Of a DNA stretch of 64,000 nucleotides, positions 35,385 through 38,614 are shown one piece after another. Position 1 is the stretch's first letter; each line of letters opens with the position of its first letter. The notes under the pieces were generated by a model. The model was given only the letters and a program-made list of their open reading frames with translations, was not told the origin of the DNA and did no database searches. The stretch covers positions 22,094 to 86,093 of the forward strand of contig CAZPAF010000001.1 of NCBI GenBank assembly GCA_964584475.1, read 5' to 3'. The position numbers and the translations under genes were made by a program. The DNA is from an uncultured Lachnospiraceae bacterium. GTDB lineage: Bacteria; Bacillota; Clostridia; TANB77; CAG-508.

Positions 35385-36539
35385 TTATTTTTTTATAATT
35401 ATATATTTCTCTGTTTTATTACCAGCTAAATCTGTAACAATAATATGATAATTACCATTTGTAGTTAAATTATATAAAGTATTTCCTGATGAATTAGATG
35501 TATCAGAAGTTTTAAATATAATGTTACAACATGCAGTTTCAACATGATTTCCATTATCAAAAAATTGCAAATGAAAATAATAATATCCCTCTTCTATATT
35601 TTCTGTAACAGCATTTGTGGCAAAAGTTACACTAATACTATTATCAGATTTTATTTTTGGATATGTCATATTTTTACCGCTAGAATTAGTAAATGCAACT
35701 GCAATTGCACTGTCTATATTACTATCAATTCCAGACACAGTAACTGCAAAAGTACCTGATGAGTTTTTGGTTCCCGTTATTTTAGAAAACAGTTTTGTTT
35801 TTATGTTTCTAGTAGCGGTTTGTAATACTATTCCATTTTCATCAACAGCTTCAACTTTAATTGTATAAGAAGTTCCTTTTTTTAGTCCAGTAAAATTATA
35901 TTGTGTATTTGTACTTTCTGCTTTAAAAGAATTATTTATATAGTATTTATACGTTTTAGTATTTTTAGGATGACTTATTACTCTAATATTTGCTGTTGTA
36001 TCTGTTAAATCAGTTCCTTTATATGAACCTGTATCATAATAATCGTCATATAGTGATAATTTTAAATCTGAATATTTATCTACAACGATATCTTTTATTC
36101 CAATATTATCTTTATAATCTAATGATACATTTGACGTATATGTTTTTCCGTTTTCTACGCCAATTATTTCTGGTGGTATTTTATCTATATTATTTATTTC
36201 ATAAGGAACGTCTTTTTTATTTCCAGAAATATCTTCTACTGTTATTGTACTTTTCTCATTTTCGCTAATTTTTTTAGTTAATTGTTTTCTGTCTTCTGAA
36301 ATAGTAAAGCCATCTATTGGATAAACAGGCTTATTAAAATCAATAGTTAAAACGACATCTTGATTTGTATATTCTCTATCACTTTCAGTTCTAGATATAA
36401 CATATGTTATTTCCGAAGAATCTCGACTTAATTTATATGCATTTAATGTAAAATTATAATTATATTTTGCAAAACATTCTATCGAAAACATAAGTATAAT
36501 ATTTATCATTATAAAAACAATTTTCTTAACTTTATTCAT
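35385..36539 (-). CDS. Secreted multi-domain protein (FN3/Ig-like repeat), last gene of the SipW cluster
   Basis: N-terminal signal/anchor ending FSIECFAKYNY. Contains an FN3-like block YKYYINNSFKAESTNTQYNFTGLKKGTSYTIKVEAVDENG. I prefer the ATG at 36539 (TGAGGT upstream). Confidence 0.65.
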   Translation of the reverse strand: MNKVKKIVFIMINIILMFSIECFAKYNYNFTLNAYKLSRDSSEITYVISRTESDREYTNQDVVLTIDFNKPVYPIDGFTISEDRKQLTKKISENEKSTITVEDISGNKKDVPYEINNIDKIPPEIIGVENGKTYTSNVSLDYKDNIGIKDIVVDKYSDLKLSLYDDYYDTGSYKGTDLTDTTANIRVISHPKNTKTYKYYINNSFKAESTNTQYNFTGLKKGTSYTIKVEAVDENGIVLQTATRNIKTKLFSKITGTKNSSGTFAVTVSGIDSNIDSAIAVAFTNSSGKNMTYPKIKSDNSISVTFATNAVTENIEEGYYYFHLQFFDNGNHVETACCNIIFKTSDTSNSSGNTLYNLTTNGNYHIIVTDLAGNKTEKYIIIKK

Positions 36540-36780
36540 CTTTTTGTACCTCATTTCCAGTTATTACTCTTGCGCTAAAATTCCATCTAGCAACACCTGA
36601 ATTAATCTCTCCTTTAGAATTTTCTAAATATGTATTTTTTAATATATAAAATTTTCTTCCCGTATTGAAACTTGTAATAATTATTAATAAAATTAAAATT
36701 ATAAGAATAATCAGTTTTATATATAATTCATTTTTAAAAATAAATTTATTTTTTGATTTTTTGTCTGTAAAAATATCCAT
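36532..36780 (-). CDS. Small membrane-anchored protein resembling the N-terminal part of the TasA-like protein
   Basis: 82 aa with one TM. GVARWNFSARV parallels SIARWSFGSKN of the 195-aa protein. Tightly packed in the operon. Confidence 0.5.
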   Translation of the reverse strand: MDIFTDKKSKNKFIFKNELYIKLIILIILILLIIITSFNTGRKFYILKNTYLENSKGEINSGVARWNFSARVITGNEVQKDE

Positions 36781-36781
36781 A

Positions 36782-37285
36782 TTAACCTTTCTTTTGACTA
36801 GCTGTAACTACAATATCAATATCATTTGTTCCACTCATATTTTCTTTATTTTCCCATGTTACTTGTAACTTATATTCTTTTTCATATTCAACATTTTTTA
36901 GAATCGCTAATCCTTGTACTTTGTTTGAACCATTTAACAACTCTTTTCCACTTTCACATTCAAACAATTCACATTTTACAGGAAAATTTTCATCACTATT
37001 TTTAATTTCTATATCATATAAAAAATCTACTTCATTTATTCTTTTTTCATTTTCTTTAACTTCATAATTTTTCACTACAAATCTATATTCTTTTATTCCA
37101 GTTTCTTTATTTATTTCCATATCTATTGTTTCTTGTAAAGATTCTACTTTTATGATTGGCTCAGCAATCGTTGCTCTTCCACAAAAATATTCTAAACTTT
37201 CATAATATCTAGCAAAAATTGGTGTTGAATAGGTTATTAACAAAAAACTAATTATTAATATTATTTTCAATTTTAGTTTCTTCAT
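36782..37285 (-). CDS. Exported protein, SipW-substrate candidate
   Basis: 167 aa. The signal peptide ends ...STPIFARYYES. Beta-rich mature part. RBS GAGGA. Confidence 0.6.
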   Translation of the reverse strand: MKKLKLKIILIISFLLITYSTPIFARYYESLEYFCGRATIAEPIIKVESLQETIDMEINKETGIKEYRFVVKNYEVKENEKRINEVDFLYDIEIKNSDENFPVKCELFECESGKELLNGSNKVQGLAILKNVEYEKEYKLQVTWENKENMSGTNDIDIVVTASQKKG

Positions 37286-37817
37286 TTGTATTGTCCTCGC
37301 TTTCTTCCTTCAAAAAAATTCTTATTATATTAAGAATAATTAAAAAAATCACATATATAAAAACTAATGGTTTTAACAAATATAAAACAAAGAATCCTAA
37401 AACTTTTGAATGAGCAATTACTTTTCCTTTAATATTTCTTAGATTAGTAGCTTCATCTAACAAGTCATTATTATCTCCTTTTGTAATCATACTTTTTTCA
37501 TTTAAATTAACAATTCTATGAGTAACTAAAAAATCATCTTGATCTACAAAAGTTACAATATCTCCAATTTTATACTCTTCATTCTCCTTTATTACAACTA
37601 ATTCACCAGCATCAATCTCAGGCTCCATACTTCCTGTTGTAACAACTAAAAAAGCAAATCCAAATAATTTAACTGGATATTCTTTTTCAATAAATTTTGA
37701 ATATGACACTTTTAATAAAATTAAAATAAGTAATAATATTAAAACATTTTTTAAGTTTTCTTTTAAAATTTTAATTTCCTCCTGTCTTTTTAAATTCTTT
37801 AATAAAAACAATCTCAT
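37248..37817 (-). CDS. sipW: Signal peptidase I, archaeal/ER type (SipW-like)
   Basis: TGSMEP (catalytic Ser), THRIV (His), KGDNN; N- and C-terminal TM anchors; 189 aa. Confidence 0.85.
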   Translation of the reverse strand: MRLFLLKNLKRQEEIKILKENLKNVLILLLILILLKVSYSKFIEKEYPVKLFGFAFLVVTTGSMEPEIDAGELVVIKENEEYKIGDIVTFVDQDDFLVTHRIVNLNEKSMITKGDNNDLLDEATNLRNIKGKVIAHSKVLGFFVLYLLKPLVFIYVIFLIILNIIRIFLKEESEDNTNEETKIENNINN

Positions 37818-37843
37818 CTTGTTCTTATTAAAAAATTTAAACT

Positions 37844-37878
37844 AATAAGTGGCACGTGGCTAAAACATGCCACTTATT
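37844..37878 (-). terminator. Hairpin between the TasA-like gene and sipW (terminator/attenuator)
   Basis: aataagtggca-13 nt loop-tgccacttatt is an 11-bp perfect stem. An A/T-rich tail follows on the minus strand. Confidence 0.5.
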
Positions 37879-38026
37879 TAAATGCAATTTTTAATTTTTA
37901 ATATATAAAGTTTTAGGATTTTATTTTCTTTTGTAAAATCTATATTTATAAAAGGTAATTAATATGCTGTACATAGGTATCAACATTTTGTAATATTATT
38001 TTCTTTTGTATAAGGTAAATGTTAAA

Positions 38027-38614
38027 TTATTTTTTTGCCTGACGTCCAACAATTTCAATATTGAATCCACATTCTAAATTTGAATTTCCGTTCTCATCAA
38101 AATTTAATGTTGCATCTTCACTATCTACTGTTGTAGTGTCATTTTCATTAAATTCCCAATTCCAATAAACGATAACACTTCTTTTTTGATTATTTGCTTC
38201 TACTGGAATTGTTCCTTTTAAATTGCTTGTTGCTAATTCTGTAAAAGAACTAATTTCTTCTGTTGTAGAAATTACAGTTCCTTTTTCATCTTTTGTTTCT
38301 GCATAAAATTTCATGTTAGTTGGTATATTTTTTTCTTCTGATACTAAAATTTCATAATCTACATCAACTTCTGAGTTTGTTGCATCTACTTCTATTTCAA
38401 ATTGACCACTTGAACCAGGGGCTATCTTTTCTTCTGAAAGATTTATAATTGCTTTCTCATTTTTTGATCCAAATGACCATCTTGCAATACTCGCTGATGT
38501 TCCTCCTGCATTAATTGATTTGTAATATCTAGCAAAAGTATATCCTGCTAAAAATATTACTAAGATTAGTGATATTAAAAGTAATACACCACCAATTTTT
38601 TTCTTATTTTTCAC
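38027..38614 (-). CDS. TasA/camelysin-like (BsaA-like) exported matrix/fibre subunit candidate
   Basis: Signal peptide MKNKKKIGGVLLLISLILVIFLAGYTFARYY. IAPGSSGQFEIEVDATNS and VYWNWEF...D..DAT blocks resemble SipW-dependent exported proteins. GTG start with AAGGAGGG plus 5 nt. Confidence 0.6.
   Translation of the reverse strand: MKNKKKIGGVLLLISLILVIFLAGYTFARYYKSINAGGTSASIARWSFGSKNEKAIINLSEEKIAPGSSGQFEIEVDATNSEVDVDYEILVSEEKNIPTNMKFYAETKDEKGTVISTTEEISSFTELATSNLKGTIPVEANNQKRSVIVYWNWEFNENDTTTVDSEDATLNFDENGNSNLECGFNIEIVGRQAKK

Follow-up and report, generated by a model that had tools for sequence, protein, structure and literature searches.

A conserved SipW-type signal peptidase operon of uncultured Clostridia as a candidate source of TasA-like fibres built from an unannotated protein family

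Why would a bacterium keep a signal peptidase of the archaeal/endoplasmic reticulum (ER) type in the midst of four genes for exported proteins, and what do these proteins form outside the cell? The question is raised by positions 35385-38614 of a 64,000-nucleotide stretch (hereinafter, the window) of contig CAZPAF010000001.1, assembly GCA_964584475.1, from an uncultured Lachnospiraceae bacterium. Here five genes follow one another on the minus strand: a candidate major subunit of 195 residues (38027-38614), the 189-residue peptidase (37248-37817), a 167-residue candidate minor subunit (36782-37285), an 82-residue mini-subunit (36532-36780) and a large subunit of 384 residues (35385-36539). The start of the last gene is placed at 36539, inside a 389-residue open reading frame (ORF; 35385-36554), because its orthologues begin at M6 of that frame. 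A single base separates the 167-residue gene from the 82-residue gene, and the genes overlap at 37248-37285 (peptidase and 167-residue protein) and 36532-36539 (82- and 384-residue proteins). A first-pass annotation of the region had listed the five ORFs, the boxes of the peptidase, both overlaps and two short recurrent motifs, and had spoken of a compact operon. All these features are in place, and the five genes indeed constitute one compact operon whose order is kept in many genomes. We put at somewhat better than even, roughly 0.55, the probability that this operon builds a SipW-dependent, TasA/BsaA-like extracellular fibre from subunits of a different, unannotated family.

The enzyme itself can be placed directly. 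The 189-residue protein scores 80.8 bits against the hidden Markov model (HMM) TIGR02228 for archaeal/ER-type signal peptidase I (cut-off 51.85) over residues 24-169; the GSMEP, THRIV and GDNN boxes can be read from its translation, and two hydrophobic segments, residues 21-43 and 139-170, form the N- and C-terminal membrane segments. Taken together, the score above the cut-off, the three boxes and the hydrophobic segments at both ends identify the protein as a SipW-type (archaeal/ER-type) signal peptidase I, the class to which the first-pass annotation had assigned it. In terms of SipW and Sec11, we take the serine of GSMEP to be catalytic and the histidine of THRIV to replace the lysine of the P-type enzymes, with GDNN as the further catalytic box. 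Against NF046067, the equivalog model for Bacillus SipW, the score is 71.6 bits, under the cut-off of 190; the peptidase is homologous to SipW of B. subtilis, but the match lies below the level of orthologues.

To which family, then, do the neighbours of this enzyme belong? The 195-residue protein, translated from a GTG start 8 nucleotides (nt) after the Shine-Dalgarno (SD) sequence AAGGAGGG, is made up of a signal segment, a junction, a linker predicted with low confidence, an IARWSF strand and a predicted beta-sandwich. It is in every case the best-conserved protein of the cluster (43-90% identity), and a profile of its 140 close homologues recovers 1,614 representative clusters (50% identity, E<=1e-3). 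The family consensus starts with the signal segment, followed by G-x-T-[YF]-[AS]|[KR]-Y-x-[ST]-x-[VI]-x-G and [VI]-A-[KR]-W-x-F, and continues through IAPGTxGxF, IDATGSEV, NKPxNL, WxWxYE, DxxDTxDG and GxQxxP. This protein had been described as TasA/camelysin-like, with the suggestion to search the TasA/camelysin family (PF12389) along with TIGR04088, TIGR04089 and TIGR04090; in these searches none of the four exported proteins gives a match at E<=1. There is no match to PDB sequences, either for the four exported proteins or for the profile of the 195-residue family, and hhalign relates that family to TasA with a probability of 2%. Among the matches of 79 diverse family members, PF12389 is absent from the 25 most matched of 58 Pfam families (E<=0.1) and TIGR04089 and TIGR04090 from the 25 most matched of 65 NCBIfam families; TIGR04088 is matched by one member of the 79, at E 0.011. 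The only name found for them in public sources is "hypothetical protein". Thus, we have a member of a large family for which the copies of Pfam and NCBIfam searched contain no model, and membership in TasA/camelysin or TIGR04088/89/90 was rejected, all tests by Pfam, NCBIfam, PDB profile search and hhalign being negative or marginal.

The sole link that is left for the TasA label is structural. The AlphaFold2 (AF2) model of the 195-residue protein (predicted local distance difference test, pLDDT, 75.7) consists of the signal helix, a linker and a sandwich of about nine strands, and its top Foldseek match in the PDB, a weak one, is monomeric TasA (5of2; E 6.9e-4, template modelling (TM) score 0.41, root-mean-square deviation 8.3 Å). 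Might the family be a diverged branch of TasA/BsaA (camelysin) proper, merely another set of orthologues? Such an origin would agree with this top fold match and with the single contact to TIGR04088, as well as with the reach of the published search in which three rounds of jackhmmer from BsaA collected 2,172 very divergent proteins, often from sipW operons with fibronectin-type neighbours (PMC11580942); it is possible that deep iterative searches could still join the family to this divergent BsaA/TasA superfamily. The consistently negative profile searches and hhalign comparison speak to the contrary, and we consider true membership somewhat unlikely. Some members of the family (L021:141-2672, L022:6004-8529 and L024:5761-7347 among the related loci; P0219 and P0296) bear, behind the same N-terminal domain, C-terminal extensions of 420-890 residues with Flg_new/Listeria-Bacteroides repeats, CBM_4_9, LCCL or DUF285, and look like subunits with built-in adhesin domains.

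The connection between the peptidase and its neighbours can be traced through the two short motifs, which were counted in all window ORFs of at least 60 residues (23.9 k residues), with expectations derived from the amino acid composition of ORFs of at least 120 residues (20.4 k residues). FA[RK]Y is found four times, where 0.32 copies would be expected, and three of the four lie within the cluster, at residues 24-28, immediately after the sole hydrophobic segment of the respective protein; A[RK]W.F has two copies, both within the cluster, for an expectation of 0.04. Both motifs are kept in orthologues from up to 18 related loci. The second motif had been noticed as SIARWSFGS in the 195-residue protein and GVARWNFSA in the 82-residue protein, and the counts substantiate that observation. 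The proposal of an F-A-[RK]-Y junction in four substrates is borne out for three, where it is conserved: GYTFA|RYY in the 195-residue protein (residues 24-31), PIFA|RYYES in the 167-residue protein and CFA|KYNYN in the 384-residue protein. It fails for the 82-residue protein, which has a conserved junction of its own, ITSF-x-[TS]-G-x-K-[FY]-Y-x-LKNTY.

Across the 79 family members, the junction has T, A or S at P3 in 69, A or S at P1 in 76, K or R at P1' in 76 and Y at P2' in 71, a pattern that fits a predicted -3/-1 cleavage site. The verified site of TasA, GGGTWA|AFND, has the same layout as GYTFA|RY; the TasA sequence used for this comparison agrees with PDB 8aur, whose chain begins at A28 after GGGTWA, and the non-significant hhalign alignment (probability 2%) sets GGGTWAAF against GYTFARYY. 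The [KR]-Y pair at P1'-P2' would provide a testable rule for recognition of substrates by SipW. Need these junctions be cut at all? One could imagine that the hydrophobic segments are uncleaved anchors of a membrane-tethered surface complex in which [KR]-Y-Y is a juxtamembrane element, the peptidase acting elsewhere or on one protein only. The segments are indeed long (Kyte-Doolittle values up to 3.1-3.4 over 17 residues), the AF2 helix of the 195-residue protein runs through the junction to residue 33 and the 82-residue protein has no canonical site. However, permanent anchors would not account for the small residues at P3 and P1 that a cleavage site requires, or for the likeness of the junction to a proven site in TasA, and the location of a peptidase gene among the genes of its apparent substrates is hard to explain without cleavage, so that we regard this arrangement as quite improbable. 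A type IV pilin was rejected as well, given that the conserved motif lies after, not before, the hydrophobic segment and that there is no G|F-T-L-x-E motif.

If the junctions are cut, are the exported proteins related to one another beyond them? The 167-residue protein comprises a signal, its junction, an IAEPI motif and a predicted pilin-like beta-sandwich; ARYY and IAEP are invariant in the alignment of its family. Comparison of this family with the 195-residue family by hhalign (probability 86.5%, E 4.6e-6, 94 columns) spans the signal, the junction, the first strand and part of the sandwich, and by this alignment the protein and the major subunit are distant paralogues. Its homologues in related genomes are often shortened to about 125-140 residues or split by frameshifts (L001:7342-7855, L003:7306-7704), and the C-terminal third of the protein seems to be dispensable or decaying.

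The 82-residue protein contains a membrane anchor, the ITSF-x-TG-x-KFY-x-LKNTY junction and a VARWNF strand, with no globular domain; homologues of 63-88 residues are found at the same position in 14 loci. Over the ARWxF strand it aligns with the 195-residue family with a probability of 93.8% (E 1.7e-7), in agreement with the suggestion of the first-pass annotation that it is an N-terminal-only copy of the major subunit; judged from sequence, it is a membrane anchor joined to the N-terminal strand of that subunit. The similarity of the 384-residue protein to the 195-residue family is confined to the signal and the junction (probability 84.7%, E 6.7e-6). The rest consists of several beta-rich modules, with IDKIPP and DLAGN motifs conserved among the orthologues. 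An FN3-like repeat had been attributed to this protein, and a weak FN3-like region does show up near residues 186-245, with a partial match to fn3 (PF00041) at residues 209-242 and with FN3 chains at E 0.1-0.2 in the search of the PDB with its profile; the Pfam score of 23.3 bits stays below the gathering threshold of 25. HMM cross-matches in the related loci agree with the kinship of the four exported proteins indicated by hhalign. A sortase-assembled pilus was also considered and rejected: none of the five cluster proteins contains an LPxTG-like motif, and no sortase is encoded by the five cluster genes and the ten flanking genes scanned.

The predicted structure of the 167-residue protein bears a weak resemblance to subunits that complete each other's folds. 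Most of the best-scoring fold matches of the 167-residue protein (AF2 model, pLDDT 77.3) are donor-strand-exchange subunits (E 1.6e-3 to 4e-2, TM 0.33-0.48), namely FimG with a donor peptide, the TasA fibre 8aur, CfaB, FimF, FimA, PapE, PapA and Caf1, with further matches to the Saci_0406 thread of Sulfolobus (7pnb) and CanA (7uii), both at E 0.03-0.04. The preponderance of donor-strand pilins is suggestive, and no single match is proof. In both models pLDDT drops below 50 near the mature N-terminus, at residues 30-39 of the 195-residue protein and 22-40 of the 167-residue protein. The chaperone-usher pilins that supply the best structural matches (FimG, FimF, FimA, CfaB, PapA and Caf1) have an incomplete Ig-like fold that is completed by the N-terminal extension of a neighbour; unlike those systems, the present one includes no chaperone or usher and resides in a Gram-positive host, and with TM scores of 0.33-0.48 the comparison is an analogy of mechanism only. 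The archaeal filaments, that is, the Saci_0406 threads, the AbpA bundling pili and the CanA cannulae, share with the proposed fibre the lack of a chaperone, processing by signal peptidase I and N-terminal strand donation; they differ in the weakness of the fold matches (E 0.03-0.04), in the lack of sequence similarity and in the bacterial host here.

Among the protein scaffolds of Gram-positive biofilms, fibres of the TasA type are understood best; most of what is known of them comes from Bacillus and, in recent work, from C. perfringens. Residues 28-38 of TasA, right after the SipW cut, form its donor strand, and residues 48-61 self-complement the monomer (PMC9674648). TapA nucleates TasA by donating a homologous N-terminus, and residues 44-57 of TapA alone suffice for biofilm formation (PMC10151520). 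BsaA, encoded in a sipW operon, polymerises by donor-strand exchange, and according to the published model the monomer receives a strand while still anchored by its signal and is then released by SipW (PMC11580942).

A fibre of this kind could arise from the present operon in the following way. The dedicated ER-type peptidase would act on the 195-, 167- and 384-residue proteins, cutting each behind the small residue in T/x-[FY]-A|[KR]-Y and exposing a conserved [KR]-Y-x-[ST]-x-[VIL] N-terminus that would be unstructured in the monomer. This exposed [KR]-Y-x-[ST]-x-[VI] segment would act as the donor strand, entering the beta-sandwich of the subunit that follows, and the IA[RK]WxF strand would occupy the groove in the monomer. 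The 195-residue protein would be the major repeating subunit because its gene comes first and has a stem-loop behind it and because the protein is the best conserved of the cluster, and its 167-residue paralogue could serve as a minor or adaptor subunit. The 384-residue protein might donate a strand and act as a terminal adhesin or matrix-binding piece, a role proposed because it has putative Ig/FN3-like modules besides the donated strand. Finally, the 82-residue protein, because it consists of anchor and strand only and has no cleavage motif, could donate the strand that starts the fibre and keep the fibre attached to the membrane, in the manner of a natural minimal TapA; the analogy is reasonable because so short a segment of TapA is sufficient. 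The scheme builds on the family of the peptidase, the homology of the four proteins, the conserved order of the genes, the statistics of the motifs and the fold predictions, from which we infer SipW cleavage, strand exchange, the role of each subunit and a function in biofilm formation or adhesion.

A more modest interpretation stops short of a polymer: the cluster would be a processing module for monomeric surface or secreted proteins, with SipW merely removing unusual signals and [KR]-Y as the specificity determinant. It is true that the link between peptidase and substrates, together with the motif, are the only features firmly shown, that the fold matches to fibre subunits are weak and that modules of the adhesin type (Flg_new, CBM, LCCL, DUF285, MucBP) are found fused to some members of the family. 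What such a module leaves unexplained is the conservation in 14 loci of a protein that is only an anchor and an N-terminal strand, the homologous mature N-termini of four otherwise different proteins and the dominance of donor-strand pilins among the best fold matches of the 167-residue protein. Hence we find it unlikely, though by no means negligible, and retain the SipW-dependent fibre as the preferred reading.

How close would such a fibre be to the known ones? The first-pass annotation had likened the cluster to tapA-sipW-tasA and sipW-bsaA, with a different and larger subunit set; the proposed mechanism is of that kind and the subunit set is distinct, and every test of membership in those families by sequence failed. 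In common with tapA-sipW-tasA there is a dedicated ER-type signal peptidase embedded among its apparent substrates, a junction of the form T-aromatic-A|x-aromatic, an accessory protein with an N-terminus similar to the major subunit's donor strand and a major subunit with a predicted beta-sandwich, for which TasA is the best, though weak, fold match. The subunits differ in having no detectable homology to TasA/camelysin (PF12389, TIGR04088), in the conserved [KR]-Y at P1'-P2' and in the arrangement of their genes (major-sipW-minor-mini-large), with four candidate substrates as opposed to two; the role of TapA would go to an anchor plus strand of 82 residues that lacks an Ig domain.

The sipW-bsaA-bsaB-bsaC operon of C. 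perfringens is likewise a clostridial sipW operon with a polymerising major subunit (a prediction in our case), a paralogous minor subunit and a larger accessory protein. There, however, sipW is the first gene, whereas it is the second here, and the large protein has a von Willebrand A domain where ours has putative FN3/Ig-like modules. No N-E-K isopeptide triad is evident here and P1' is Arg in this clade; TIGR04090 (the CPF_0494 family) gives no match, the comparison with BsaA having been made through models and the published description. An isopeptide lock of the BsaA type through Lys at P1' was considered and appears unlikely, since this position is Lys in most of the family and Arg in the present clade.

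The distribution of the operon adds to the picture. When one genome per species was scanned, 24 loci were obtained, nearly all from metagenome-assembled genomes of uncultured Clostridia or Bacilli of the gut (sheep, rabbit, roe deer, mouse, chicken and human), and about 20 gut metagenome genomes contain orthologous clusters. Eight loci have the complete order 195-sipW-167-82-384 and others only part of it, and in 21 of 29 distinct loci the cluster includes a SipW-like gene. Distant members of the family (27-41% identity) also adjoin a SipW-like gene along with further paralogues: L023 has six paralogues, L029, L030 and L031 are SipW-adjacent too, and L027, from a high-GC organism, encodes two SipW-like peptidases (211 and 178 residues) and four paralogues (194, 552, 180 and 241 residues). 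Next to this last cluster (L027:5114-12585; also L028) there is a 2,136-residue protein with no Pfam domain on record. The cluster at L030:3343-12844 has as neighbours genes for a single-stranded DNA-binding protein, helix-turn-helix regulators, a sortase with a SpaA-domain protein and a T4SS_pilin-like gene; this setting among genes of conjugative or mobile elements suggests that the system can be transferred horizontally.

Several observations have to be set against the fibre hypothesis. None of the sequence methods connects the subunits with TasA, BsaA or camelysin. Matches by fold are weak (TM 0.33-0.48, E 1e-3 to 4e-2), the models are of medium confidence (pLDDT 76-77, from shallow alignments of 22 sequences) and, for the 195-residue model, generic CUB/GOLD beta-sandwiches score nearly as well as TasA. 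In the 82-residue protein, I-T-S|F is a possible site, so that the proposed tether may be cleaved after all. Furthermore, sipW is missing from the cluster in eight of the 29 loci, and in three of these (L012, L019 and L020) the 167-residue homologue retains FA[RK][YF]Y with no adjacent sipW, which implies that another peptidase may suffice. These three loci belong, together with L014, to a subclade in which sipW is cleanly lost, with no remnant (around positions 6400-7100). Three of the four have a drifted junction in the major subunit, K[LF]A[ST].SY or KYAINY instead of TFARYY, with LASSY, FATISY and YAINY in place of FARYY; the fourth is L020, and the gene for that subunit is truncated in L019 (135 residues) and L020 (74 residues). 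Loss of sipW and drift of the junction probably represent one evolutionary event, and their coincidence is therefore suggestive only.

Could the expression of the operon tell more about the stoichiometry of its products? Between the gene of the major subunit and sipW there is a 14-bp stem-loop (37844-37878, minus strand; folding free energy about -19 kcal/mol) at a terminator-like site. A comparably strong hairpin of differing sequence occupies the same gap in all 15 orthologous loci tested (L001-L018), with free energies of -12 to -22 kcal/mol and often without a clear U-tract. The stem-loop is probably a partial terminator/attenuator or a stabiliser of the mRNA 3' end that sets the ratio of major to minor subunits; being located 3' of the 195-residue gene, it should raise the output of that gene over the downstream ones.

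Upstream of the operon, the best promoter-like site of the region is of the sigma-A type (38957-38985, minus strand; TTTACA, 17 nt, TATAAT; 11 of 12 matches) and is conserved in the orthologous loci, most of which have an extended TGnTATAAT -10 element. Between this promoter and the gene of the major subunit lies a structured 5' leader of about 340 nt (38615-38952, minus strand), as deduced from an alignment of 20 leaders with RNAalifold; the leaders range from 237 to 388 nt, and conservation, assessed within the 510-nt upstream region, is far above the intergenic expectation. In the long-range helix P1 (38949-38938 with 38649-38639, minus strand), the 5' end of the leader, AAGUUAAAUAUU, is in 16 of 19 loci exactly complementary to a block that lies 33-43 nt ahead of the start codon, with compensatory changes from A:U to G:C in L016 and L018 and other compensating changes in L015. 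Hairpin P2 (38897-38877, minus strand; AAAUAUC-GUUCU-GAUAUUU) has changes on both sides in six of its eight pairs. Altogether, 94.4% of cells are paired, compared with 32-53% when the partner is slid, and seven pairs have changed on both sides, a level of covariation that none of 500 shuffles reaches. An invariant GCCCC (38689-38685, minus strand) is complementary to the GGAGG of the SD sequence (38625-38621) and is a possible anti-SD that could mask it. A search of Rfam with the leader gave no family at E<=1 except two spurious microRNA-hairpin matches, and a known riboswitch, such as one for cyclic di-GMP, was ruled out by this search at that threshold. The leader is thus a candidate for a new cis-regulatory RNA, a separate element of interest whatever the fate of the fibre hypothesis.

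A broader scenario, which we offer as tentative and would not bet on, is that donor-strand fibres processed by SipW and assembled without chaperones form a widespread class in gut Firmicutes, primed and tethered by a mini-protein, with a leader RNA that masks the SD sequence gating expression; no description of such a class was found in the protein-family libraries or the full-text literature searched. If the proteins do form fibres, a function could be assigned to a large unannotated family of the gut metagenomes of sheep, rabbit, deer, mouse, chicken and human, and strand-exchange assembly coupled to SipW would prove to be far wider, and its sequences more varied, than the present HMMs show. 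The 82-residue protein would then be a natural counterpart of the engineered minimal TapA and a clean system for the study of fibre nucleation and tethering.

As for the surroundings of the operon, the G+C content of the window is about 25%, the nearest relatives are metagenome-assembled genomes named "Clostridia bacterium" and the flanks hold housekeeping genes (a glycogen-phosphorylase-like gene, dxs, cmk, plsC and typA). Directly downstream, on the same strand, a 288-residue gene (34428-35294) combines an N-terminal P-loop NTPase-like region with a C-terminal Asp23 (cell-envelope-related) domain; its product resembles neither an exported subunit nor a peptidase, and it was treated as unrelated to the operon. 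On the opposite strand, between the phosphorylase gene and one for cytidine deaminase, there is a 568-residue ORF without a Pfam match (41940-43646, plus strand), and its stretch is the sole region with positive GC and AT skew in that part of the window.

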